The notes under the pieces are model-generated. The model did not search any database. It saw nothing but the letters and a program-made list of their open reading frames with translations, and had not been told where the DNA came from. This document shows positions 8,532-21,620 of a stretch of DNA of 64,000 nt, one piece after another (position 1 is the first letter of the stretch; each line of letters starts with the position of its first letter). This stretch comes from Desulfurivibrionaceae bacterium (GTDB lineage Bacteria; Desulfobacterota; Desulfobulbia; Desulfobulbales; UBA5123): the NCBI GenBank assembly GCA_030145325.1, contig JAQYVW010000004.1, forward strand, positions 24,060 through 88,059, in the 5' to 3' direction. Position numbers and translations under genes: made by a program.

Positions 8532-9869
8532 ATGCCTTGGCAGAAAGTTAAAACTATTCTGAAGAAGTCTCTGTCTGCAAGCGTGTATGCGTTGTGGCTT
8601 GAACCCATTCGTGGAGTTCAGGCAGATGATACTCTGCTCGAGCTCATCTGCCCGGATCAGTTCTTCGCTTCATGGGTTAGCGAGCATTACCTGCCCTTGA
8701 TTCAAGAAAGTCTGGCTCTTGCTGGTCACAGCGGGATTACCGCTCGCTGCGCGTTGCGCCCCAATAATAATCAGGCAATTATTGCCAATGATAGTGGCGC
8801 GCAGTTGCGTCTGCCTTGTGTTCCCGAGCAGCAGCGCTCCACCATCCGGACCTTGCATCCTCGTTATACCTTCGACGAATTCATGGTTGGTGACAGCAAC
8901 GCCATGGCTCATTCCGCCTGTAGCAGCCTGGCTGGTGGTGATACCTCCTTGGGGCGTTGTCTCTATATAGATGCGGGCACCGGCCTGGGCAAAAGCCATC
9001 TCACCCACGCCGTGGCGCACCATGTCACCACCCATACGCCCTCTCTTCGTCTCCAGTATCTCACGGCTCAGCAACTGACCAGTGAAATGGTACGGGCCAT
9101 TAAGGGCAATACCATGGAGCAGTTTAAGGACAAATTTCAAAAACATTGCGATATGTTGTTGATTGAGGATGTGCAGGCTCTCTCCGGTCGGGTCAAGACC
9201 CAGAACGAGCTTGCTGACGCCTTTGATATCCTGATGGAGAGTGGTAAAACCATCGTCCTAACCGGTGGGGTGGCGCCACGGGATATCCCCAATATTGATG
9301 AGGGGATTCGATCCCGGTTTTCTTCCGGGTTGGTGACCTCCATAAACTCACCGGATCTGCATACCCGGGTGATTATCCTCAAACGCAAGGCGCAAAATAA
9401 GGATCTTGCCCTGGACGACGAATTGATCATCTACCTGGCAGAAAGTATCCGTGGTGATGTCCGGCAGTTGGAGAGTGCGGTGATTGGCCTCAAGGCTAAA
9501 TCATGCTTGATGAAGACCCCTCCCGATATGACCATGGCCAAGGAGGTGGTTCGTAATCTCATTGGTCATCAGGTAGAGTTGTCAGCCGAGTCGGTGCGGG
9601 ATTTTGTGGCCCGGCAGTTCAAGGTGGCGGTTAGTGACCTGCGCTCCAAGTCTCGTAAAAAGTCCATCACCTTTCCTCGCCAGGTGGCGATGTACCTCGC
9701 TCGCAAGCATACTGAGCAGGCCTTGAGTGATATCGGTGGTGCTTTTAACCGTGATCACTCCACTGTGGTTCATTCGGTGCGGGTGATCAGCGAGGGGGTT
9801 ACCCGCAACGGCAGTATTCGCGGGCAGCTGGAGCATCTTTCCGATAAGTTGAAAAAAGAGTTGTTGTAG
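8532..9869 (+). CDS. dnaA: chromosomal replication initiator protein DnaA
   Basis: 445 aa. Walker A GTGLGKSHL, Walker B LLIEDVQ, sensor/arginine-finger region, and a C-terminal DNA-binding helix region (VAMYLARKHT...DHSTVVHS). Confidence 0.95.
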   Translation: MPWQKVKTILKKSLSASVYALWLEPIRGVQADDTLLELICPDQFFASWVSEHYLPLIQESLALAGHSGITARCALRPNNNQAIIANDSGAQLRLPCVPEQQRSTIRTLHPRYTFDEFMVGDSNAMAHSACSSLAGGDTSLGRCLYIDAGTGLGKSHLTHAVAHHVTTHTPSLRLQYLTAQQLTSEMVRAIKGNTMEQFKDKFQKHCDMLLIEDVQALSGRVKTQNELADAFDILMESGKTIVLTGGVAPRDIPNIDEGIRSRFSSGLVTSINSPDLHTRVIILKRKAQNKDLALDDELIIYLAESIRGDVRQLESAVIGLKAKSCLMKTPPDMTMAKEVVRNLIGHQVELSAESVRDFVARQFKVAVSDLRSKSRKKSITFPRQVAMYLARKHTEQALSDIGGAFNRDHSTVVHSVRVISEGVTRNGSIRGQLEHLSDKLKKELL

Positions 9870-11358: not shown

Positions 11359-12018
11359 TTAAGTTCTGTTTTTAAGCTGGGCGGTGAGGGTGTCACCGTC
11401 GAATTCGATCTCGATCCAGCCGCCCTGGCTGATCATGCCGGGGTTGATGATGGTGGTGCCACCGATGCGGTCAATACTCTTGGCCTCGTGGATGTGGCCG
11501 GTGAGGCAGAGGGCCGGTTGCTGTTCTTCAATAAAGGCGCGGATGGCTTGGCTGCCCACATGGCTGTGGTTAGGCAAGCGGTCGCAGTTGGTGCCATATG
11601 GCGGAGCGTGGCTGACCAAGATATGGTGGTCGGCGGCGGCGACTTTACTAAACCCTTGCTTGAGAAGGATTGTTATCTCTGGCTCGGAAAACTCATTGGG
11701 GGTTTTAAACGGGGTCGGGTTGGAGCCGCCTACTCCGAAAATGCCGAGATTGTTGAGCGTGGTGCCGGTGCCGTGCAGGCTGATCCCTTGGTTGTGAAGA
11801 TACTTGTTCACTTCCGGTCGGTCAAGGTTGCCGGCCAGGGCGAGAATATTGCTATTGAGCGTGCCGACACTTTGCAACACCTGGGCGGCATCATCGTCGC
11901 CGCCAAAGTTGGTAAGGTCGCCGCTAAGCAGAATAAGGTCTGCGCTCTTGATCCCGGGCACTGTGGTCAAGTTTCCCGGATTCATATGGATGTCGCCGAA
12001 GGCAATTATTCGCATCAT
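11359..12018 (-). CDS. metallophosphoesterase (calcineurin-like)
   Basis: 219 aa. GDIH, SGDLTNFG, GNLD and GHIH metal-ligand motifs in canonical order. Confidence 0.8.
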   Translation of the reverse strand: MMRIIAFGDIHMNPGNLTTVPGIKSADLILLSGDLTNFGGDDDAAQVLQSVGTLNSNILALAGNLDRPEVNKYLHNQGISLHGTGTTLNNLGIFGVGGSNPTPFKTPNEFSEPEITILLKQGFSKVAAADHHILVSHAPPYGTNCDRLPNHSHVGSQAIRAFIEEQQPALCLTGHIHEAKSIDRIGGTTIINPGMISQGGWIEIEFDGDTLTAQLKNRT

Positions 12019-12217: not shown

Positions 12218-12910
12218 ATGACCACCGTGTTGCCAGAGAAACCGCGAGTATTGGTGCTGTACTATTCTTTCAGCGGTCAGACCATTGGTCTTTTGCACCG
12301 ATTGACAGATGGTTTGCGCTTCCGTGGCGCCGAGGTGGTCATGGAAAGGTTGCGGCCATCCGATTCCCGCCGTTTTCCGGTGGGAACCTATGTGGCCACC
12401 ATGCGGATGATGGTGACCACCTGCTTTCGGCCCCGGGTTGCCATTGAGGAGTTGTCGCCAGCTACCCATGGTCATTTTGATTTGGTTATCCTGGCCGGCC
12501 CTACCTGGTCATATAATCCAAGCGGGCCAGTGCTTTCCTTCCTTGATCGCGATGGCGAGACCATGCTGGCTCAACGTAAGGTCTTGCCGATTATCTCCTG
12601 CCGGGGCTACTGGCGTTGGCATTGGTTCGGTCTGCGCAAGATGCTGCGCGCGTGCCATGCCGAGATTGTCAATCTGATGGTGTTCACCCATCCGCAACCT
12701 GAGCCGTGGCGAACCCTGGGGGTTTTTCTGAAGATCGCCGGGAAGGCTCCGGAGCGGTCGCCGTTTCTAAAGAGATGGTACAGTCGTTTCGGCCATGGTC
12801 GTGATCAGCAGGAAGAAGCGTGGCGTTTTGGCCTTGATCTCGGCCAAGCCCTCAAGCGGGGCGAAGATCTCGCCGAGCTTGATTTTCGCACCCCCACCGC
12901 CATGCCCTAA
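12218..12910 (+). CDS. flavodoxin-like fold protein (function unknown)
   Basis: 230 aa. N-terminal VLVLYYSFSGQT resembles a flavodoxin FMN-phosphate loop. The rest was not recognised. Confidence 0.45.
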   Translation: MTTVLPEKPRVLVLYYSFSGQTIGLLHRLTDGLRFRGAEVVMERLRPSDSRRFPVGTYVATMRMMVTTCFRPRVAIEELSPATHGHFDLVILAGPTWSYNPSGPVLSFLDRDGETMLAQRKVLPIISCRGYWRWHWFGLRKMLRACHAEIVNLMVFTHPQPEPWRTLGVFLKIAGKAPERSPFLKRWYSRFGHGRDQQEEAWRFGLDLGQALKRGEDLAELDFRTPTAMP

Positions 12911-12924
12911 AGGGTGTTTCTTTT

Positions 12925-13449
12925 CTAGAACTCAACCCCTTTCTGAGCCTTGATGCCGTTTTCATACGGATGTTTGATGGCCCGCATCTCGGTGGCCAGA
13001 TCTGCCGCCTGGATGATCCCGGTACTGGCTCCCCGGCCTGTGATCACCACATGCTGGTGGGCGGGTCGTTTTTGCAGGAGGTCGATCACCTCTAACTCCT
13101 CCACGATCCCATAGTTGACCAGATAGGTAAGTTCGTCCAACACCACCAGGTCGAAGCCATCGCTTAAGATGGTTTCCCGCGCAAACTCCCACGCCCTGCG
13201 GCCCGCCTCCCGTACCGATGACTCTTCTTCCTTCCAGGTGAAGCCGGTGCCCAGGGTATGAAACTCTACCATTTCGGTGAGATGATTCTGCGCTGCCAGT
13301 GCCTCGCCGGTTTCCCACTTCCCCTTGATAAACTGAATGATGCAGATCTTAAGCCCGTGACCAGCGGCGCGCACCGCCTGGCCCAAAGCAGCGGTGGTTT
13401 TGCCCTTGCCGTCGCCGGTATAGAGGATAACGAGACCTTGGTTGCTCAT
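12925..13449 (-). CDS. cobO: cob(I)yrinic acid a,c-diamide adenosyltransferase
   Basis: ORF trimmed to the ATG at 13449 (MSNQGLVILYTGDGKGKTTAALG P-loop). LVVLDELTY and VVITGRG blocks typical of CobO/BtuR. Confidence 0.85.
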   Translation of the reverse strand: MSNQGLVILYTGDGKGKTTAALGQAVRAAGHGLKICIIQFIKGKWETGEALAAQNHLTEMVEFHTLGTGFTWKEEESSVREAGRRAWEFARETILSDGFDLVVLDELTYLVNYGIVEELEVIDLLQKRPAHQHVVITGRGASTGIIQAADLATEMRAIKHPYENGIKAQKGVEF

Positions 13450-13597
13450 GGGGGATGTCCTTAAACGAGAGTGAGATTGCCCTGGAAAATTGCGAAAAGT
13501 TCCTGGCAAAGGGTAGCCGTTGTCGATTGAAAACGGTAGAGTAACACGCGTCGGGTAATATTTGCAGCAGGTTTTCGATGAGGGAAAGCACTTGCCT

Positions 13598-13754
13598 TGA
13601 CCACCCTCACCCCGGCCCTCTCCCTGGGGGCGAAGGCCGGGGTGAGGGTGGTCTTTTGGGGGTTGGTGGAGTTTGGGAAGTCTGCCCGAAGCGGGAAAGT
13701 GTTGCGCTCTGGAGTCCCCTCTCCATCAGGGAGAGGGCCAGGGTGAGGGTGGTG
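13598..13754. repeat. GC-rich REP-like element (left border of the island)
   Basis: CCACCCTCACCCCGGCC (13601-13617) pairs with GGCCGGGGTGAGGGTGG (13635-13651). A second GGGAGAGGGCCAGGGTGAGGGTGG arm lies at about 13729-13752. The same motif family recurs at 20657 and 21253. Confidence 0.75.
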
Positions 13755-13799
13755 TCGGTGTTGGGTTGAGCTTTACGCTGTGCATCAATATAAGGAGAT

Positions 13800-16736
13800 A
13801 TGTCGATGGTAGGTGAATTTGCAATTTTTTGGAGTACTCTGCCGCCGGATTTTCGGAATCTGGTTGTTTCTACAGCGGCAAGTCTGGCGGCTGGGTTTCT
13901 TGGTAATAAACAGCCTGAGCTGCTTAAGCCGATGGGGGTGGCCTTCGAAAAGGGTCTACAGGCTTTCCTAGCTTCGTTGGGACAACCCTTCGTCGGTTCC
14001 TTTGGTGAACGCATAGTCCGAGATGTCGAAATAGTCACTTTACTGCGGGAGACCATGAAGGCACCATCCATGGCTGATCATGGGCAAAGGATTAAACAGC
14101 GGCTGGGTGCTTTGGGGGTTGATGGGGCCGTTCTTGCAAGCCTTGATGTTGATCAAGCTGTACGGGAGTTTGTTGAACGGGTCATGGATGAGGTGCGGTA
14201 TGTTCCGGAGTTGTTGCCCCTCCTGCAACTTGAGCGAATGGAGGAATTGATTTGCCTTACGAAAGGCATGCCGCCTGACTTGAGCCGTCTTCAAGAAGAG
14301 TATTTTGGTTGGCTGCGCAACACTTATGGTCGGATCAGGTTCAAGGGATTGAGTAAAAATCCCTTCACTCTGCCCCTGTCCGGGATGTATACCGCACTTA
14401 ATTTGACCGAGGAACGCCATGGCAAAGAAAAAGATGGTGCGGTTGACGATGAGGAAAGTGCTCAGCTTGCTGGGCGCGAAGGGGCAACGAGTTCTATCTC
14501 TTTGGGGGATCTTATTGCGGCGCGCTTTGTTGCCATAACCGGTGGCCCCGGAGCTGGGAAAAGTACGATCTTACGTTACATCGCCCTTGCCTTTGCCGAG
14601 AATGATGCTCAAGAACGGTTGGGTGTTGCCGAGGATCTCTTTCCTGTTCTCTTGCCCGTGTCCGCCTACGCAGAATTTCTTCGAAATGGTGATTCCGTCG
14701 GGGCGGCTCGTTGTTCGTTGCGTGACTTCTTTTCTCTCTATTTTCGTCGCCGGGGACTGCCGGATTTGGAGCCGCTTATCTGCCATGTCGCTCAGCAGGG
14801 TCGGGCGCTTTTTTTGCTTGATGGTCTTGACGAGGTTATTGACGACGGAGAGCGGGCGCGGATCGTGGATGCGGTGCGCGACTGCATGATTGCTGACCAC
14901 GAGGTAGAAAATAGGTATATCATCACCTGTCGAACCGCAAGTTATAACGGTACCAGCCGTTTTGAGCCCTTTGCCGGTCAAGAGTTCCGCCATTGTTTGG
15001 TGCAGCCTTTCGAATTGGCGCAGATCAGCCGTTTTCTCTGGACTTGGTATCATTGGTATGAAACGGAGGTTAATCGAAAGAGGGATGGTGTTGATGAGAA
15101 TGCTGAGCGGTACCGGCAGCGGATGGTTGAGGTCATTGAGCTTGATCGCAATATCTTCGCCATTGCCAGAACCCCGCTCCTTCTTACAATCTTGGTCTTG
15201 ATCGAACAGGAGGGCAACACCCTGCCGAGGAACAGGGCTGAACTGTATGGCAAATGCCTTACCTTACTGGCAGGAGCTTGGGAAGGTATTCGTAGCGAAC
15301 ATGCCCGTGCGGCGGATCGGGAGTATCGGTTGGGGGATTTGCGTATTGACGATGACATGATCGTTGAGATGCTTGGCCCGGTGGCCTTGTCCATGCACCG
15401 CCGTTCTGCCCCTAATATCGGCCATGGTGAGTTGAAGCGGCAGTTTGCCGGGATTTTGGATGAAACCAACCGGAATATGCGCCTATCGCGGCAACAGGCA
15501 GATGATTTTTTGGCCATCTTGGGTCGTCGGAGCGGTATTTTGCAGGAGGTTGCGCCGGGAGTCTATGATTTCATGCATCAAACCTTTCGTGAATATTTGA
15601 TCGCTCGTTATCTGGCCGATGTGGCCGAGGATTATCTAGAGCTGTTGGAGGAGGTACTCCTTAAGGCGGAGTGGCGGGAGGTGGTATTTCTGTTTGTCTC
15701 TTCCCTGAATAAGCGTGACGCTTCAAAATTTGTTGAGCAAATCATGCAACGTCTCGATGCTGGGGTCGCAAATTTAGTTTTGGCTGGTGATATTGTCGTT
15801 GATGTGGGGCCAGAGAAAATAGCACCAAAGGTAGTGGCAGAGTTGATTGTCCGGCTGCGAGATGCACAGGGGGGTGATTGCTCGATGAAGGAGAAGGTGA
15901 GTGTGGCCGAGAGTTTGGGTTGGCTTGGCGTTCATCAAGGGGTTGCCAATATCCGGGAATGTTTTGTTGCCATTGACGGTGGGGAGTACGATCTTAAGGA
16001 GGTGGGTACCGTAACCCTGGATTCTTTTGAGGTTTGCCGTTATCCGGTGATTAACTTGTGGTTTGAAGATTTTGTCCGTGGCAACGACTACGGTCATGAG
16101 GGGTATTGGTCTGCAGAAGGTCGGAAGTGGTTGGCGTATACCAAGGTTGTGGCGCCGCGATTCTGGAATGAGCGGAGATATCGTTGTCCTACCTCGCCGG
16201 TGGTCGGGGTTTGCTGGTATGAAGCCGATGCCTTTTGTCGGTGGTTGACTGCTACTGATAAGGAGGGGTATCTCTATCGATTGTTGACCGAGGAGGAATG
16301 GCAGGCTGTTGCTGCCGGGAGAACGCAGCGGCTCTATCCTTGGGGGGGAGGAGAAGGGGAGGTGTCGAGTAATACAAGTGAAGCGAAGGTTGGTCGGATC
16401 TCGCCGGTGGGTGTTTTTTCTTTGGGGAATACCCCGGAATTTGCAATCAGTGATCTTGGCGGTAATGTTTGGGAGTGGACAAGCTCTGATTATCATCGAA
16501 GGGAGCAGCAAGGTGATTTTTTATTCGATGAGAAGTTGCAGAGGTTTTATGAAGAAGGGGATTGGGGGAGATATGTAAAAGAAATGGAAAACAAAGAAAG
16601 GGGGGTGCCTGTTTTGCGCGGCGGCTCGTGGTTCAATGATCGTGGTTTTGCCCGCTGCGCCGCCCGCCTCAGGGGCCTCCCGAACGACCGGTTCCACAGA
16701 CTGGGTTTTCGTTGCGCCAGGACTTTATTAAGATAG
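13800..16736 (+). CDS. DGR target 1: NACHT (STAND/NLR-like) NTPase with C-terminal FGE-sulfatase / C-type-lectin-fold domain carrying VR1
   Basis: 978 aa. AAGGAG Shine-Dalgarno before the ATG. Walker A ITGGPGAGKST, Walker B ALFLLDGLDEV (NACHT hhhhDGLDE). C-terminal FGE motifs (PVVGVCWYEADAFCRWL, YRLLTEEEWQ, GNVWEWTSSDY, RGGSWFNDRGFARCAARLR...GFRCAR). Confidence 0.9.
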   Translation: MSMVGEFAIFWSTLPPDFRNLVVSTAASLAAGFLGNKQPELLKPMGVAFEKGLQAFLASLGQPFVGSFGERIVRDVEIVTLLRETMKAPSMADHGQRIKQRLGALGVDGAVLASLDVDQAVREFVERVMDEVRYVPELLPLLQLERMEELICLTKGMPPDLSRLQEEYFGWLRNTYGRIRFKGLSKNPFTLPLSGMYTALNLTEERHGKEKDGAVDDEESAQLAGREGATSSISLGDLIAARFVAITGGPGAGKSTILRYIALAFAENDAQERLGVAEDLFPVLLPVSAYAEFLRNGDSVGAARCSLRDFFSLYFRRRGLPDLEPLICHVAQQGRALFLLDGLDEVIDDGERARIVDAVRDCMIADHEVENRYIITCRTASYNGTSRFEPFAGQEFRHCLVQPFELAQISRFLWTWYHWYETEVNRKRDGVDENAERYRQRMVEVIELDRNIFAIARTPLLLTILVLIEQEGNTLPRNRAELYGKCLTLLAGAWEGIRSEHARAADREYRLGDLRIDDDMIVEMLGPVALSMHRRSAPNIGHGELKRQFAGILDETNRNMRLSRQQADDFLAILGRRSGILQEVAPGVYDFMHQTFREYLIARYLADVAEDYLELLEEVLLKAEWREVVFLFVSSLNKRDASKFVEQIMQRLDAGVANLVLAGDIVVDVGPEKIAPKVVAELIVRLRDAQGGDCSMKEKVSVAESLGWLGVHQGVANIRECFVAIDGGEYDLKEVGTVTLDSFEVCRYPVINLWFEDFVRGNDYGHEGYWSAEGRKWLAYTKVVAPRFWNERRYRCPTSPVVGVCWYEADAFCRWLTATDKEGYLYRLLTEEEWQAVAAGRTQRLYPWGGGEGEVSSNTSEAKVGRISPVGVFSLGNTPEFAISDLGGNVWEWTSSDYHRREQQGDFLFDEKLQRFYEEGDWGRYVKEMENKERGVPVLRGGSWFNDRGFARCAARLRGLPNDRFHRLGFRCARTLLR
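16618..16730 (+). other. VR1 (variable repeat) at the 3' end of target 1
   Basis: 113 nt collinear with TR 18210-18322. 14 mismatches, all at TR adenines (AAC>TTC, AAC>CTC, AAC>GGC, CAC>CTC, AAC>GAC, AAC>TTC, AAA>AGA, ATA>TTA, AAA>TTA). Confidence 0.9.
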
Positions 16737-16795
16737 CCCTTTATTCTTTTACCCTTTTACTCTTTGTCCGCCGCAGGCGGGCGCGAATTTTTTTT
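16734..16795 (+). promoter_or_regulatory. conserved post-VR element plus GC hairpin and T-run (candidate DGR homing cis-element and/or terminator)
   Basis: TAGCCCTTTATTCTTTTACCCTTTTACTCT (16734-16763) is 28/30 identical to 20581-20610 after VR2. Followed by the hairpin GTCCGCC-GCA-GGCGGGC (16766-16782) and T8 (16788-16795). Confidence 0.6.
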
Positions 16796-16807
16796 GAGAA
16801 TGTGAGT

Positions 16808-17155
16808 ATGGCAAGCGAAGTCGACGCGGTTACCAAGCTCTATGACTACCTGCTCTGGCTGGTGCCCAAGCTGGAGAAATTTCCCCGCCAACAGAAATTT
16901 CTCATTGGTGACCGTTTGGAGACCCTACTCCTCGACATCCTTGATCTGCTGGTGGAGGCGGCATATACCCGCAATAAGGCAGCCTTGCTGCAACGGGCCA
17001 ACATCAAGCTTGAGCAGCTTCGCTATCTGATCCGGCTGGCCAAGGATCTCAAACTACTGTCGTTGAACAGTTACGAATTTTCCGCCCGGGCCATTGATGG
17101 GATTGGCACCTCGGTTGGCGGCTGGCTCAGGTATGCACGACATGAAAAGTTATAA
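16808..17155 (+). CDS. avd: DGR accessory variability determinant (Avd; four-helix-bundle protein)
   Basis: 115 aa from the internal ATG of ORF 16712..17155. KLYDYLLWLVPKLEKFPRQQKFLIGDRLETLLLDILDLLVEAAY...LRYLIRLAKDLKLLS matches the Avd/four-helix-bundle pattern. Overlaps the RT start by 14 nt. Confidence 0.85.
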   Translation: MASEVDAVTKLYDYLLWLVPKLEKFPRQQKFLIGDRLETLLLDILDLLVEAAYTRNKAALLQRANIKLEQLRYLIRLAKDLKLLSLNSYEFSARAIDGIGTSVGGWLRYARHEKL

Positions 17156-18203
17156 TCATCTCTTTGGGCAAATTACCTCTTTTGACAACCTGCTGCTGGC
17201 TGCCCGTAAGGCCCAGAAGGGTAAGCGTTTCAAGGCGGGATGCGCTCGTTTCAATTTCAACCTGGAGGGACAATTACTCAAGCTCCAGCGGGAGTTGCTG
17301 GCGGGCAGTTATCGTCATGGCCGCTATCGCGATTTTTTTATCAACGATCCCAAGCGGCGGTTGATCAGTGCCGCGTCCTATCGGAATCGGGTGGTGCACC
17401 ATGCTCTTTGTAATGTTATCGAACCCCTCTTTGACCGCTCCTTTATTCATGACTCCTATGCTTGTCGAACCGGCAAGGGCACCCACGCGGCCGTGGATCG
17501 TTACACCCATTATGCCCGTAAGTACCGTTACGTGCTCAAGTGTGACATCCGTAAATACTTTCCCTCTGTGGATCAACAGATCCTGTTGGCAATGATCGTT
17601 AAAAAGATCCGTTGCCAACCAACCATGGCGCTGATTACCGAGATCGTCTCCTCCCGCCGCGACCATGGCTGCGGGTTCCATTTCTCGGGCGATAATCTTT
17701 TCACCCCCCTTGAGCGGCAGCGGGGGCTTCCCATTGGCAACTTGACCAGCCAGTTCTTCGCCAACCTTTATCTGGACGGCTTTGATCATTGGGTTAAGGA
17801 AGAGCTGCGTTTGCCTTATCTCCGTTATGTGGATGACTGGGTTGTCTTTGCCAATGATAAGGTGTTGCTGGGCGAGACCCTGGTTCAGATGAAGGAATAT
17901 CTGGCCGGGTTGCGCTTGCGTCTGCATGCCAATAAATGCCGCGTCTACCGGGTGGATGAGGGCGTCCGTTTCCTGGGTTACCGTATTTTTCCAGATCATC
18001 GTCTACTGGACAAGGGCAATGTGTTACGGGCCAGGCGACGATTCAAGAAGTTGTGTTGTCGGTACCGAGATCGCGAGATATCGTTTGCCGCTGTGCATCA
18101 AAGCATTCAGAGCTGGGTGGGCCATGCTTCCCATGCCGATACCTATCGGTTGCGGGGCAGGCTGCTCGGTGAGGTGCGCTTGCAAAGGGGGCCGGGTCTA
18201 TAA
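17142..18203 (+). CDS. DGR-type reverse transcriptase
   Basis: ORF 17094..18203, start set at ATG 17142 (MKSYNHLF). RT motifs include LPIGNLTSQFFANLYL (the [I/L]GxxxSQ signature of DGR RTs) and the catalytic YVDD (LRYVDDWVVF). No maturase or endonuclease extension. Confidence 0.9.
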   Translation: MKSYNHLFGQITSFDNLLLAARKAQKGKRFKAGCARFNFNLEGQLLKLQRELLAGSYRHGRYRDFFINDPKRRLISAASYRNRVVHHALCNVIEPLFDRSFIHDSYACRTGKGTHAAVDRYTHYARKYRYVLKCDIRKYFPSVDQQILLAMIVKKIRCQPTMALITEIVSSRRDHGCGFHFSGDNLFTPLERQRGLPIGNLTSQFFANLYLDGFDHWVKEELRLPYLRYVDDWVVFANDKVLLGETLVQMKEYLAGLRLRLHANKCRVYRVDEGVRFLGYRIFPDHRLLDKGNVLRARRRFKKLCCRYRDREISFAAVHQSIQSWVGHASHADTYRLRGRLLGEVRLQRGPGL

Positions 18204-18209
18204 ACGGGT

Positions 18210-18322
18210 GCGGCGGCTCGTGGAACAATGATCGTGGTTTTGCCCGCTGCGCCGCCCGCAACAGGAACCACCCGAACAACCGGAACCACAAACTGGGTTT
18301 TCGTTGCGCCAGGACTATAAAA
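18210..18322 (+). ncRNA. DGR template repeat (TR)
   Basis: Starts 6 nt after the RT stop. 113 nt with 28 adenines, many in AAC codons. Would encode GGSWNNDRGFARCAARNRNHPNNRNHKLGFRCARTIK. Collinear with VR1 and VR2. Confidence 0.9.
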
Positions 18323-18435
18323 GCGTTTTTTCGTCGGAGCCTTAACTTTCATGGAGGTTAGGGGAGTGCGATTCTTGAAGTCCAGGCCCTGCTCCTGTGT
18401 CGGCTGCAATTGGTCGACCGAAACAATAACCACCT

Positions 18436-18486
18436 CCTGTCGGGCTGGTAGTCCCGTGGGCGAACGTCCGGCAGGGGGATTTTTTA
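18436..18486 (+). terminator. candidate rho-independent terminator of the avd-RT-TR transcript
   Basis: CCTGTCGG (18436-18443) pairs with CCGGCAGG (18468-18475, one G-U pair), followed by GGGGATTTTTT. Confidence 0.45.
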
Positions 18487-18528
18487 CTCTTTTAAAAACA
18501 TCCGTTCCGACCATAACGAGGAGCAAGA

Positions 18529-20583
18529 ATGGTACACCGTCTTAATTTTGTTTCCGATATCCATTGTAGCGAGGATCAGCTCGGTTTTGCCAGATACGTC
18601 AACACCCTGGCCGCCATGATCGGGGAGGAGGGGTTTACCACCCCGTTTTGTATCGGCATCTATGGCGATTGGGGCAGCGGCAAGACCAGTTTCATGCATC
18701 AGTTGCAGAAGCGGGTGAAGGAGGATGGCGGCGAAACCCATATGGTGCCGGTCTGGTTCAACCCCTGGCGGTATGAGAAGGAAGAGCATCTCATCATCCC
18801 CTTTTTGAAGACCATCGAGAAGAGTCTGGCGGCAGCGCCTAAAGGATTGGCTCCCGAGGTGGCGGCAAAACTCAAGGATGCAGCCGCGGCAGTGGGCCGG
18901 GTGGCCGCCGCCTTTGCCTATGGCTTGAATGTGGAATGGAAGCTGGGTGGTCTGAAGGCGGTCTTTGATGCCTCCAAGGCCGTGGGTCGTGAGGAAGAGC
19001 TTGCCGAGCGGCGGCGCAAGGAGGCTACGGCTCTTGCTGAGACCTTGTCGTCGCTCTACTACGACGCCATCAATGAACTTCAGCTTGATGAGCATGAAGA
19101 GGCGTTTCGCATCGTGGTCTTCATCGACGATCTTGATCGTTGCCTGCCGGAAAAGGCGGTGGAGTTGCTGGAGGCGATCAAGCTTTTCCTAGACCTCAAA
19201 GGCTACCTCTTTATCATCGGGGTGGCCAAAGAGGTGGTGGAGAAAGGGATTCGGCATCGCTATCGGTTTCTTGACGACGGTAAGGGCGGGCAAGAGGTGG
19301 TCAAGCCCGAGGCCTATCTGGACAAGATGATCCAGATGCCCTTGCAGTTGCCGCGTGTGGAAGCGGGCCGCAAGCGGGATTACCTCAATACGCTCTTTAA
19401 AGGTGCGGAGTTCGAGCCGGAGGTGCGGGAGGTAATTTTTAAACTGGTCGAAACCGCCATCGGTGACAACCCCAGGGCATTAAAGCGGTATGTCAACCTC
19501 TTGGCCTTCACGGCCCGGCTTGCCCAGGCGGTGAAGGATGAGCTTCTGCAAAAGGAAGAGGAGTCGCCGGAGCATAAAGAGTTGCTGGAGGCGCATTTTG
19601 TGCCGGTGCAGTACGCCAAATGGACCACCATTGTTTTTAAGTTTTCCCGCGATTATCAGGATATCAGGGGCAACTGGCAGCGATTGCTGCGTTTGCAGGA
19701 AGCTGCCTTGGACAAGGGGGAGGAGCAGGCAGGGGGTGTCGGCAGTGAGGGTGAGAAGAAGAATCTCACCATTTCATCGACGTTACGGAAGATTCTCGCC
19801 GTGAAGCCGCATTTTCCTGAGGATAAATGGTTGATCGATTGTTTCATTAATCTCAATGAATCAACCTTGGCCAGTGGCGAGGCCAAGGAGACTTCCGGTG
19901 CCAGCCGACATTATCGGCCTGGGGATATGGTTCGCATCCCGGCGGGTGAGTTTCTCTATGGTGAGGCCAAGGAGCCGACAACCATTGACCACGATTATCT
20001 GATTGATGTCTTTCCGGTGACCAACAGTATCTATAAGGAGTTCCTGGATGCCAATTTGGGACATGATGTTCCCTTTGTGGATCAGTCGTGGGCGCAGCCG
20101 TATAATTGGGACAAGGAAAAACGGCTTTTTCCGGTTGGTAAGGATGATCATCCGGTGGTGCTGGTGTCGTATGAGGATGCGCTGGCGTTCTGCCGGTGGC
20201 GGAGCGAAAAAGAGGGTGGGGAATTTCGGTTGCCCAGCGAGGAGGAGTGGGAAAAGGCGGCCCGGGGCACTGATGGTCGCCAATACCCTTGGGGCGAGGA
20301 GTTTGCTCAGGAGCGTTGTAATACCGAGGAAGCCGGAATTGGCGAAACCACCCCGGTGGATCGGTACCCGGAAGGGCGGGGGGTGTTTGACTGCATGGAT
20401 ATGGTCGGCAACGTTTGGGAGTGGACTGGTAGTTGGTTTGATGATGATAAGGATTTGAAGGTGCTGCGCGGCGGCTCGTGGAACTTTGATCGTGGTTTTG
20501 CCCGCTGCGCCGCCCGCCTCAGGTACCCTCCGAACAACCGGGACCACATTCTGGGTTTTCGTTGCGCCAGGACCATAAAATAG
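18529..20583 (+). CDS. DGR target 2: KAP-family P-loop NTPase with C-terminal FGE-sulfatase / C-type-lectin-fold domain carrying VR2
   Basis: 684 aa. GAGGAG Shine-Dalgarno. KAP hallmarks IGIYGDWGSGKTSF (Walker A) and VVFIDDLDRCLPEKAVELLEAIKLFL (Walker B). FGE motifs (HPVVLVSYEDALAFCRW, FRLPSEEEWEKAARG, GNVWEWTGSWF, RGGSWNFDRGFARCAARLR...GFRCAR). Confidence 0.9.
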   Translation: MVHRLNFVSDIHCSEDQLGFARYVNTLAAMIGEEGFTTPFCIGIYGDWGSGKTSFMHQLQKRVKEDGGETHMVPVWFNPWRYEKEEHLIIPFLKTIEKSLAAAPKGLAPEVAAKLKDAAAAVGRVAAAFAYGLNVEWKLGGLKAVFDASKAVGREEELAERRRKEATALAETLSSLYYDAINELQLDEHEEAFRIVVFIDDLDRCLPEKAVELLEAIKLFLDLKGYLFIIGVAKEVVEKGIRHRYRFLDDGKGGQEVVKPEAYLDKMIQMPLQLPRVEAGRKRDYLNTLFKGAEFEPEVREVIFKLVETAIGDNPRALKRYVNLLAFTARLAQAVKDELLQKEEESPEHKELLEAHFVPVQYAKWTTIVFKFSRDYQDIRGNWQRLLRLQEAALDKGEEQAGGVGSEGEKKNLTISSTLRKILAVKPHFPEDKWLIDCFINLNESTLASGEAKETSGASRHYRPGDMVRIPAGEFLYGEAKEPTTIDHDYLIDVFPVTNSIYKEFLDANLGHDVPFVDQSWAQPYNWDKEKRLFPVGKDDHPVVLVSYEDALAFCRWRSEKEGGEFRLPSEEEWEKAARGTDGRQYPWGEEFAQERCNTEEAGIGETTPVDRYPEGRGVFDCMDMVGNVWEWTGSWFDDDKDLKVLRGGSWNFDRGFARCAARLRYPPNNRDHILGFRCARTIK
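20468..20580 (+). other. VR2 (variable repeat) at the 3' end of target 2
   Basis: 113 nt collinear with TR. 9 mismatches at TR adenines (AAT>TTT, AAC>CTC, AAC>TAC, CAC>CCT, AAC>GAC, AAA>ATT). 2 non-adenine differences (C>T at 20529, T>C at 20574). Confidence 0.85.
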
Positions 20584-20610
20584 CCCTTTGCTCTTTTACC
20601 CTTTTACTCT
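20581..20610 (+). promoter_or_regulatory. second copy of the conserved post-VR element
   Basis: TAGCCCTTTGCTCTTTTACCCTTTTACTCT, 28/30 identical to 16734-16763. Absent after TR. Confidence 0.6.
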
Positions 20611-20656
20611 CTGCTCTGGTCGGAGCTGGGCGGTTTTCGGTTGGTGGGAACGGTTT

Positions 20657-20904
20657 TGACCACCCTCACCCCGGCCCTCTCCCTGAGGGCGAGGGAGTGG
20701 CTTCGAGCGGTTTATGGGGGGAGGGCTTTTAGTTCGGTGGAGTTTGGGGGCGCGGGAAAGGCGAGTGCTGGAGCCGATGCCCGCAAGGCCTGGCCCGGTA
20801 ATTTGTTGTCATCCCATCCAGATGCCACCTGGGATGCAGAAACGGTACAACCTATCTCGGCAACGTCCCCTCGCCCCAAGCGGGGAGAGGGCCAGGGTGA
20901 GGGG
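20657..20904. repeat. ~240-bp GC-rich repeat, copy A (upstream of DUF559)
   Basis: Starts TGACCACCCTCACCCCGGCCCTCTCCCTGAGGGCGAGGGAGTGGCTTCGAGC and ends GGGGAGAGGGCCAGGGTGAGGGG. Collinear with 21253-21489 apart from scattered mismatches and indels. Confidence 0.8.
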
Positions 20905-20907
20905 AGA

Positions 20908-21255
20908 ATGAATAAGAACACCACCATTGCCAGAAAACTCCGTCGCCAACAAACCGATGCCGAACAAATACTCTGGCAACGGCTCCGTAGCCGCCAACTT
21001 GCCGGCTGCAAGTTTCGCCGCCAGCATCCGGTGGGGCCATATGTGGTTGATTTCGTCTGTCTCAAACAAGGACTGGTGGTGGAACTTGACGGCAGTCAGC
21101 ATGCCTTGCCTGAGGAAGTGGTTAAGGATGCGAAACGAACCGCCTATCTCGAAGCGGAGGGCTTTCGGGTGCTGCGCTTCTGGAATAACGAGGTGTTTGG
21201 CGAGATCGAGGCGTTGTTGACGCGGATTTTGGCGGCGCTGGTGGAGGGACGATGA
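20908..21255 (+). CDS. DUF559 endonuclease-like protein (Vsr-like fold)
   Basis: ORF 20641..21255 trimmed to the ATG at 20908 (MNKNTTIARKLRRQQTDAEQILWQRLR...FRRQHPVGPYVVDFVC...VELDGSQH...RVLRFWNNEV), the typical DUF559 pattern. The upstream part of the ORF is a translated repeat. Confidence 0.8.
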   Translation: MNKNTTIARKLRRQQTDAEQILWQRLRSRQLAGCKFRRQHPVGPYVVDFVCLKQGLVVELDGSQHALPEEVVKDAKRTAYLEAEGFRVLRFWNNEVFGEIEALLTRILAALVEGR

Positions 21256-21489
21256 CCACCCTCACCCCGGCCCTCTCCCTGAGGGCGAGGGAGTGGCTTC
21301 GAGCAGTTATGGGGGGAGGGCTTTTAGTTTGGGGGAGTTGGAAAGGCAAGTGCTGGAGCAGGTGCCTAGGCGGCCAGCTCGGTAATGTGTCATCATTCCA
21401 GCCAACTGCCACCTGGGATGCAGAAACGGTATAACCTATCTCGGCAACGTCCCCTCGCCCCAGTGGGGAGAGGGCCAGGGTGAGGGGGG
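21253..21489. repeat. ~240-bp GC-rich repeat, copy B (downstream of DUF559)
   Basis: Same 5' and 3' ends as copy A. Begins within the DUF559 stop codon. Confidence 0.8.
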
Positions 21490-21492
21490 AAT

Positions 21493-21531
21493 AAAAAAAG
21501 GCCGCAGCGGTAATCCGCCAAGGCCTTTTTC
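21493..21531. terminator. hairpin with flanking A and T runs (terminator downstream of tRNA-Val; bidirectional)
   Basis: AAAAAAAGGCC...GGCCTTTTT (21493-21530). Confidence 0.5.
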
Positions 21532-21544
21532 TTATATCAAGATA

Positions 21545-21620
21545 TGGTGGGCGATACGGGATTCGAACCTGTGACTTCCACCGTGTGAAGGTGGCACTCT
21601 AACCACTGAGTTAATCGCCC
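21545..21620 (-). tRNA. tRNA-Val (anticodon CAC)
   Basis: The reverse complement GGGCGATTAACTCAGTGGTTAGAGTGCCACCTTCACACGGTGGAAGTCACAGGTTCGAATCCCGTATCGCCCACCA folds as a cloverleaf. 7-bp acceptor stem, anticodon loop TTCACAC, GTTCGAATC T-loop, encoded CCA. Confidence 0.9.

Follow-up and report, generated by a model that had tools for sequence, protein, structure and literature searches.

A 64,000-nt stretch of DNA (hereafter the window; contig JAQYVW010000004.1, positions 24,060–88,059 of the forward strand) from the Desulfurivibrionaceae bacterium assembly GCA_030145325.1 was found to carry a diversity-generating retroelement (DGR) that is intact, is borne on an accessory island and, in our reading, diversifies two NTPases that would act as sensors of invaders. 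We assign this full statement a probability of about 0.65. The narrower statement, that the locus is a genuine DGR whose two targets are NTPase-lectin proteins, is almost certain. The open reading frame (ORF) list and translations of the window gave the order target 1 with variable region 1 (VR1), accessory variability determinant (avd), reverse transcriptase (RT), template repeat (TR) and target 2 with VR2, all on the + strand. Target 1 (13800–16736) encodes 978 aa, the public gene call beginning at Met3 and giving 976 aa; avd (16808–17155) encodes 115 aa and overlaps by 14 nt the RT gene (ATG at 17142, to 18203; 353 aa); the TR (18210–18322) begins 6 nt past the RT stop; and target 2 (18529–20583) encodes 684 aa. 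A repeat finder returned a three-copy family of 113 nt at 16618, 18210 and 20468. The cassette of 6.8 kb thus combines one TR with two different NTPase chassis, and all its ORFs are intact. The initial annotation of this DNA had described a complete co-oriented DGR with these positions and motifs, the same Avd length and overlap and the same TR spacing, and the ORFs, repeats and translations agreed with it throughout.

The TR contains 28 adenines among its 113 nt, and these counts were the basis of hypergeometric tests. VR1 (16618–16730, + strand), which forms the last 38 codons of target 1, differed from the TR at 14 positions, and all 14 were TR adenines (p = 1.5e-10). For VR2 (20468–20580, + strand), the last 38 codons of target 2, 9/11 mismatches fell at TR adenines (p = 4.4e-5), so that the adenine bias for which the initial annotation had suggested a check was present in both copies. 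The two non-adenine changes of VR2, CAC to CCT and ACT to ACC, were at the third codon position and synonymous in context; they look like point mutations gained after the last rewriting of VR2. Because VR2 alone carries such ordinary mutations, VR1 appears to be the more recently homed copy. A wildcard scan of the 64-kb window found no VR beyond these two. The TR contains seven AAC codons and one AAT codon, and adenines occur in 16 of its codons, which caps the repertoire at ~8e14 peptide variants for each target; a stop is reachable from only two of these codons.

The RT, in whose translation IGNLTSQ and YVDD were present, matched Pfam RVT_1. Its best solved relative was a 328-aa RT (PDB 8ub7, from entries 8ub7–8ube) with an E-value of 8.6e-63 over an end-to-end alignment, versus 1.6e-20 for the GsI-IIC group II intron RT, ~1e-9 for retron-type RTs and 6e-4 for AbiK. 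The NCBIfam group II, Drt, retron and Abi models were all far under their cut-offs. Placement among other RT clades, which had been named in advance as a way to overturn the DGR assignment, was therefore not obtained, and the enzyme is of DGR type. We take the 8ub7 protein to be the Bordetella phage RT (bRT), the entry series fitting the cryo-EM work of Handa et al. The identity of the RT was ~40–42% to phage DGR-type RTs and 51–64% to RTs of cellular loci, most of which had TR/VR pairs. In a set of 80 loci with related RTs from species-representative genomes, adenine-biased repeat pairs were detected in 57, mostly in the arrangement target-avd-RT-TR and sometimes with extra targets. The DGR belongs to a cellular, non-phage lineage, and the nearest relatives of its RT lie in other phyla. 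The Avd matched NF033474 with 107.1 bits against a cut-off of 80 (E 5e-31) and bAvd (PF22296) with 63.9 bits against a cut-off of 40. A phage or plasmid origin of the element was considered and rejected, given the chromosomal housekeeping flanks including dnaA and the identity of just ~40% to phage RTs. It was also observed that in a related locus, L081, the TR starts within the 3' end of the RT ORF (8609–8644) rather than 6 nt past its stop; within the lineage of the window and L081, the end of the RT and the start of the TR have moved with respect to one another.

Target 1 was resolved into a helical N-terminal module (aa 1–~175), a NACHT domain (aa ~242–416), helical arms and a formylglycine-generating enzyme/C-type lectin (FGE/CLec) domain (aa ~734–974) that ends in VR1. 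The Walker A GGPGAGKST and Walker B LFLLDGLDEV motifs were present, and Pfam matched NACHT (PF05729, 35.7 bits against a cut-off of 26.7) and FGE-sulfatase (PF03781, 2.5e-34). An AlphaFold model, built from its few true relatives, had a mean predicted local distance difference test (pLDDT) score of 64, with an all-helical N-module (pLDDT ~70–83) and a confident alpha/beta NTPase with helical arms; the FGE domain was poorly modelled, and the fold of that domain rests on the Pfam match. The top Foldseek matches were NLRC4, NAIP/NLRC4, NLRP3 and NLRP7 (E 2e-10 to 7e-8 over ~600 aligned columns, the first three at 2e-10 to 9e-9), and by its predicted structure target 1 is a NACHT protein resembling the nucleotide-binding leucine-rich-repeat receptors (NLRs). 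The N-module is rare. A word-indexed homology search with the N-terminal 240 aa returned nothing, and a PDB sequence search returned noise alone; an exhaustive search among 1.84 billion proteins yielded ten representatives of the module. Four full-length relatives of target 1 (960–990 aa) showed the same N-module-NACHT-FGE architecture. Weak, independent matches to NNH2 ('NACHT N-terminal helical domain 2') in two relatives of the N-module, P0122 and P0123, and in a short fragment, P0125 (1.8e-4, 3.5e-3 and 7e-3, respectively), weakly suggest that it is a rare, divergent NNH2-like helical module. An EAD/Death-like adaptor or a fused known effector was not found at the N-terminus of target 1.

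Target 2 comprises a KAP NTPase domain (aa 21–331) with GDWGSGKTSF and FIDDLDRC, a helical region and an FGE/CLec domain (aa 466–681) that ends in VR2. KAP_NTPase (PF07693) was matched with 146.2 bits against a cut-off of 20 (1.6e-42; profile positions 2–292 of 293) and FGE-sulfatase (PF03781) with 3.2e-47. The AlphaFold model from a 52-sequence alignment had a mean pLDDT of 79.7, exceeding 90 over the C-terminal domain. For this domain, Foldseek returned CalU17, ToxD, SUMF2 and PvdO with target-normalised template-modelling (TM) scores of 0.59–0.70, and also TvpA, a variable protein of a DGR from Treponema denticola (2y3c, E 2.5e-10, TM-score 0.65). The NTPase half matched RdrA, the ATPase of RADAR that forms rings, and among PADLOC models the KAP domain matched QatA (5.6e-34) and PifA (7.9e-32). 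The score against the QatA model NF041923 was 140 bits with a cut-off of 600, hence target 2 is not a QatA equivalog, and no QatB, QatC or QatD partners were found among its neighbours. The initial annotation had claimed that both targets are conflict-type P-loop NTPases (NACHT and KAP), that each bears its VR in an FGE/CLec domain at the C-terminus, and that a single RT serves the two. This was supported by Pfam and Foldseek, the C-terminal folds by Pfam for both proteins and, for target 2, by the model with its TvpA match.

Transmembrane helices inserted in the P-loop domain are reportedly common in KAP proteins. None was evident in the KAP domain of target 2, the maximal 19-residue Kyte-Doolittle mean being 1.44, in a core strand, and its insert at aa ~135–158 was of low confidence in the model and hydrophilic. 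Because the P-loop domain has no hydrophobic insert, this KAP variant looks soluble. No convincing transmembrane segment or signal peptide was seen in target 1 or target 2, the hydrophobic maxima being core NTPase elements, and both look, from their sequences, like cytoplasmic P-loop NTPases. Proteins of ~680–720 aa combining KAP_NTPase and FGE-sulfatase make up a large family; among its best 120 clusters, nearly all share the architecture of target 2. In public databases, members of this family (P0002–P0120) usually appear as 'SUMF1/EgtB/PvdO family nonheme iron enzyme' or as 'formylglycine-generating enzyme required for sulfatase activity', names that are probably a systematic misannotation of DGR-type lectin sensors.

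The NACHT-FGE and KAP-FGE combination was found in four or more further genomes, in one of them with the gene order of the window. In L011, a Desulfobacteraceae metagenome-assembled genome (MAG), the order was KAP-FGE, avd, RT, TR and NACHT-FGE, with the domains confirmed by Pfam. Sampled contexts of the KAP-FGE family provided further informative cases (L081–L084). L081, a Desulfovibrionales MAG, contained [HD-CE-NACHT-FGE]-bAvd-RT-[KAP-FGE] in the order of the window; its Avd and RT were each 63% and its KAP target 54% identical to those of the window, and its NACHT protein was non-orthologous. L083 contained KAP-FGE ... NACHT/FGE-bAvd-RT, and L084 (Ca. Desulfarcum epimagneticum) contained a NACHT-FGE gene adjoining a KAP-FGE gene, plus an NNH2-NACHT-FGE gene. 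L082 had two tandem KAP-FGE genes with no RT nearby. Among the related DGRs, L004 had a KAP-FGE target, and L001 and L002 had Metallophos-NACHT-FGE targets. The initial annotation had called the pairing of NACHT and KAP targets on one element unusual. This did not hold; the pairing recurs in L011, L081, L083 and L084 as well as in the literature (PMC8195603, PMC10907252), and judged by these sequences it is a recurrent cassette with a swappable NACHT partner.

The recurrence also bears on a bolder idea, in which the NACHT-CLec and KAP-CLec proteins, rather than being independent sensors that share a diversifier by chance, would work as a pair, encoded on a portable cassette of ~7 kb that could move between phyla as a self-contained adaptive-like immunity module. 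For instance, the effector-less KAP sensor might signal via the N-terminal module of the NACHT protein, by analogy with paired sensor/helper NLRs. In favour of this idea, the NACHT and KAP genes neighbour one another or use a common DGR, in varied orders, in five independent genomes (the window, L011, L081, L083 and L084); Avd, RT and KAP are orthologous between the window and L081 with the NACHT protein swapped; the RT has its nearest relatives in other phyla; and the cassette shows a presence/absence polymorphism beside a tRNA gene. As a whole, we consider this idea improbable.

The entire cassette is contained in an island of ~8.0 kb (13463–21478) that has no counterpart at the syntenic CobO/tRNA-Val/M48-peptidase site of a relative. 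The island-less relative (L086/L087) was represented by two independent metagenomes, with a PurF 87% identical to that of the window. Its genes between the amine-oxidase gene and purF are ordered as in the window, but cobO is separated from the M48/TPR peptidase gene by only ~465 bp. By blastn, L086 2130–3417 corresponded to window 12218–13462 and L086 3579–3718 to window 21479–21620, with L086 3418–3578 at the island site. A tRNA-Val(CAC) gene (21545–21620, – strand) is found in both the window and the relative, and the right boundary of the island falls directly beyond the 3' end of this gene and its terminator. The DGR cassette is thus an accessory islet, gained here or lost in the relative, as seen in the two genomes compared. 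An accessory island beside a tRNA gene supports the invader-sensor reading, because such placement is common for accessory or defence genes.

At the 3' ends of the VRs, a stretch of ~34 nt directly past the TR-homologous part was common to VR1 (16733–16766, + strand) and VR2 (20580–20613, + strand) and missing from the TR. Its core is a tandem CTTTTAC (16746–16760 and 20593–20607). The tandem motif occurred only twice in the window, both times at the VR flanks. In 1.77 Mb of related loci it occurred 13 times; 8/13 lay downstream of a VR by no more than 70 nt, and no copy was beside a TR. A VR flank with the tandem motif was also present in L001, L002, L004, L011, L015, L075, L081 and L083, often with a GC hairpin and T-run next to it. 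VR1 is likewise followed by a GC hairpin and then a T-run (16765–16783, + strand), terminator-like, the same arrangement as in L001 and in the closest cassettes, L081 and L083; after VR2 the hairpin is weak. Other DGR clades (e.g. the Chlorobiaceae loci L042–L059) had different VR-specific flanks, which within each locus were again common to every VR. The TR, VR1 and VR2 end in an invariant, GC-rich segment of 23 nt that all three have in common. No inverted repeats or hairpins of the BPP-1 cruciform type were found at the VR 3' ends with a 6-nt seed, and the DNA folds there were no more stable than shuffles. By analogy with BPP-1, the VR-specific flank may mark the recipients for cDNA integration, the role that the initiation of mutagenic homing (IMH) sequence and hairpin have in that system.

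Comparison of the 80 related loci showed that the sequence 3' of the TR is conserved across phyla, with stems changing in step. A covariance model (R1) was built from six sequences with three helices specified by hand; MAFFT and RNAalifold alone gave P1 and P2 and missed P3, so that the hand-specified structure and covariance model were required. R1 gave exactly one full-length match in each of 50 loci and one in the window, at 18328–18485 on the + strand with 143.9 bits. The matches sit just past the TR/RT, except in L044 and L012, and on the RT strand, except in L068. In the R1 alignment, 91.9% of cells were paired, compared with 55% for shuffled partners and 37–49% for slid partners, all 32 of the 32 pairs had changed on both sides, and the covariation score was 0.82 versus 0.21 when shuffled; the alignment being fitted to the model, these pairing figures are somewhat inflated, and the margins are large. 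P1 (18333–18369) is a stem-loop directly 3' of the TR. P2 (18399–18418) is a hairpin followed by an A-rich CGAAAC tract (CGAAACAATAA), and P3 (18433–18478) is a long terminal stem, interrupted by a conserved internal loop (GGUAG/CGAA) and followed by a U-run. Rfam at gathering thresholds assigned the TR-flanking RNA to no family, its only matches in the window being two tRNAs. Handa et al. described similar structured RNA elements in 207 of 278 DGRs, as well as the concept of a long-range duplex; the 158-nt RNA, which resembles the Sp RNA of BPP-1, is an element of a known kind.

A G-rich tract at 18186–18199 (+ strand), at the 3' end of the RT coding region upstream of the TR, was complementary at 12/14 positions to the single-stranded conserved linker between P1 and P2 (18384–18397). 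Analogous tracts lie 12–26 nt upstream of the TR in many loci, with the sequence varying and the complementarity kept; in several clades the anchor pattern failed. This partial evidence suggests that the two tracts could possibly be the arms of a long-range duplex of the DGR RNA.

The following course of events is proposed. Avd, RT, TR and the structured RNA, being co-oriented and contiguous, are probably on one transcript. By analogy with the Bordetella phage DGR, an RT-Avd complex would bind the structured RNA and self-prime. As homology predicts, the TR would be copied to cDNA with misincorporation opposite adenines, and the cDNA would replace the last ~113 nt of the two target genes. What marks the recipients would be the GC-rich, invariant 3' end of the repeat and perhaps also the VR-specific flank (tandem CTTTTAC and hairpin) that the TR does not have. 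The variable lectin domains would serve as anticipatory sensors of molecules of an invader, such as a phage or another mobile element. Ligand binding would then lead to NTP-dependent oligomerisation and an effector response, for the NACHT protein via its N-terminal helical module. This anticipatory invader-sensor role is the best-supported reading and rests on domain homology and context; the current activity, the ligands and the immune output we infer. The hypermutating intracellular sensor suggested by the initial annotation agrees with a published hypothesis for this class of proteins and, for the present locus, keeps the standing of a proposal.

Several findings weigh against this reading. 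Exact-sequence look-up of the RT, Avd and target 2 found no variant alleles or sibling contigs, the adenine-free TR/VR core had no match when scanned against the JGI metagenome collection, and target 2 is alone in its 90%-identity cluster, so that one sequence is known in the collections searched. VR2, with its two non-adenine changes, has not been rewritten since these arose. Moreover, the KAP VRs are decayed relative to the local TR in two cassettes orthologous to that of the window, L081 (10943–11075) and L083 (9920–10032), where 29/48 and 15/45 mismatches, respectively, were at adenines. Such observations would be expected from a fossil or dormant DGR, in which past homing is recorded and one or both targets now have fixed specificity. 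Set against dormancy are the intact RT catalytic motifs, Avd, full-length Sp-like RNA and both target ORFs, the complete lack of non-adenine changes in VR1, and the small number and synonymous nature of those in VR2. The KAP VR is clean in the window, L004 and L011, and on the NACHT side of L081 the VR is clean as well (21/21 mismatches at adenines); the decay on the KAP side beside a clean NACHT-side VR implies that the targets of one DGR can be retired singly. As all parts are intact and VR1 is free of non-adenine changes, the DGR is likely to be active now, and we consider dormancy unlikely. Other findings that weigh against the invader-sensor reading concern its output. Target 2 has no N-terminal extension and no recognisable effector domain, the N-terminal 240 aa of target 1 matched NNH2 with an E-value of 0.017, under the Pfam cut-off, and no separate effector or adaptor gene was found near the cassette, the neighbours being housekeeping genes. 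In the literature from 2024 onward, of which coverage was incomplete, no experimental test of the function of DGR-diversified NTPase-FGS proteins was found.

The missing effector gene, together with the lack of any known defence system in the island, would also suit targets that are not antiviral and that act in kin or self/non-self recognition, or in regulatory tuning to variable environmental ligands. Kin recognition was raised as an alternative by Dore et al. (PMC10907252), and the host, a Desulfobulbaceae-like member of the Thermodesulfobacteriota, was counted on the same side. However, the KAP domain is closest to the anti-phage proteins QatA and PifA and, structurally, to RdrA of RADAR; related NACHT targets carry conflict effectors, a calcineurin-like phosphoesterase in L001/L002 and HD-CE in L081; and the cassette is an accessory island. 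A purely non-defence role therefore appears rather improbable to us. It is far less probable still that the C-terminal domains are enzymes, as the name 'SUMF1/EgtB/PvdO family nonheme iron enzyme' would have it, and that the repeats are gene-conversion tracts between paralogues. The FGE-sulfatase Pfam family does contain real enzymes, ToxD, SUMF2 and CalU17 are the best sequence relatives of solved structure, and the NCBI and JGI names point the same way. But the mismatches are adenine-specific with respect to a non-coding copy that directly follows a DGR RT and Avd, the variable codons are of the AAC/AAT type as in known DGRs, all matches to enzyme-family NCBIfam models were far under the cut-offs, and the model of target 2 also matched TvpA, a non-enzymatic DGR variable protein.

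The class to which these targets belong has been described. Kaur et al. (eLife 2021, PMC8195603; also eLife 2020, PMC7159879) reported proteins in which a STAND NTPase is combined with an FGS domain and diverse N-terminal effectors or adaptors; in DGR-linked NTPase-FGS proteins KAP can displace STAND, and a single organism may harbour several systems that differ in their type of NTPase (PMC8195603, PMC10907252). Dore et al. (PNAS 2024, PMC10907252) reported that DGRs of clade 5D commonly have two targets with central STAND NTPases, some with a KAP NTPase, that the VRs of one locus diversify differentially, and that the sensor role is untested. In both papers (PMC8195603, PMC10907252) the N-terminal effector or adaptor is a frequent but not obligatory feature, and the idea of a hypermutating sensor is proposed. 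The present locus resembles the systems of Kaur et al. in its central NACHT or KAP domain, C-terminal FGS domain, linked RT and four-helix accessory protein and proposed hypermutating receptor. It differs in that no EAD/Death-like adaptor or separate effector was found, the N-module of target 1 is rare, and both NTPase types are on one compact cassette with one TR. With clade 5D (Thiohalocapsa PB-PSB1 DGR 3/6 and relatives) it shares a STAND or KAP NTPase with a C-terminal CLec domain and a DGR RT with Avd; its host is an uncultured Desulfobulbaceae-like bacterium that, unlike those, is not documented as multicellular. The locus is a clean further example of this already described class of DGR-diversified NTPase-FGS proteins and is not new in kind.

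Compared with the BPP-1 DGR (mtd-avd-TR-Sp-brt), the RT, Avd, adenine mutagenesis, C-terminal CLec VR and structured RNA 3' of the TR are alike. The order here is target-avd-RT-TR-Sp-target with two targets, the targets are cytoplasmic NTPases and the element is chromosomal, whereas BPP-1 is phage-borne with a tail-fibre target; the tandem CTTTTAC in the VR 3' flank is a further difference. Target 2 shares the KAP-type P-loop domain of QatA, PifA and RdrA and is structurally similar to the ring-forming RdrA, but it has neither QatBCD nor RdrB partners and carries a DGR-diversified lectin domain at the C-terminus instead. Target 1 has the tripartite layout of bNACHT and Avs STAND defence proteins and animal NLRs, with an NLRC4/NLRP3-like NACHT module; in contrast to those, its sensor is a hypermutable FGE/CLec domain, not TPR, LRR or WD repeats, and its N-module is uncharacterised. 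Among the bacterial analogues of a hypermutating antigen receptor proposed to date, NLR-like and KAP proteins diversified by DGRs come closest. The new details added here, of modest value, are the islet boundaries, the recurring NACHT and KAP cassette, the covariance model of the TR-proximal RNA, the candidate VR-flank motif and the rare N-module. The covariance model, flank motif and cassette may aid annotation and engineering of this DGR lineage, and the locus, being compact and intact with a defined RNA, clear VR flanks and no extra partners, is a reasonable candidate for reconstitution.

Within the island, a 21-nt repeat (CCCTCACCCNGGCCCTCTCCC) was present in seven copies, all of those in the window, with none expected by chance. 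Inverted copies of it bound three units resembling miniature inverted-repeat transposable elements (MITE-like units), at 13604–13749, immediately upstream of target 1, at 20663–20903 and at 21259–21486. These units bracket the DGR cassette and a DUF559 gene with a Vsr-like endonuclease fold (20905–21255, + strand; PF04480, 1.2e-41, aa 92–200 of a 204-aa ORF). The true start of this gene is probably near 20905, because the listed ORF start at 20641 reads through the second MITE-like unit. No integrase was found in the island segment.

Upstream of the island lies a calcineurin-like metallophosphoesterase gene (11359–12018, – strand), 1.8 kb from target 1. It was considered as a detached effector because the NACHT-FGE targets of L001 and L002 carry a fused N-terminal Metallophos domain, and was rejected, as the gene is kept in place in the island-less relative; its likeness to the fused domains is probably a coincidence. 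The surroundings are chromosomal, with bioF, purF, mrdA, cydA and pntB in the window, and PurF placed the host in the Thermodesulfobacteriota, with Desulfobulbaceae/Desulfurivibrio as the closest named relatives (75–79% identity). The dnaA gene is at 8532–9869, ~4 kb upstream of the island, implying that the cassette probably sits close to the replication origin.

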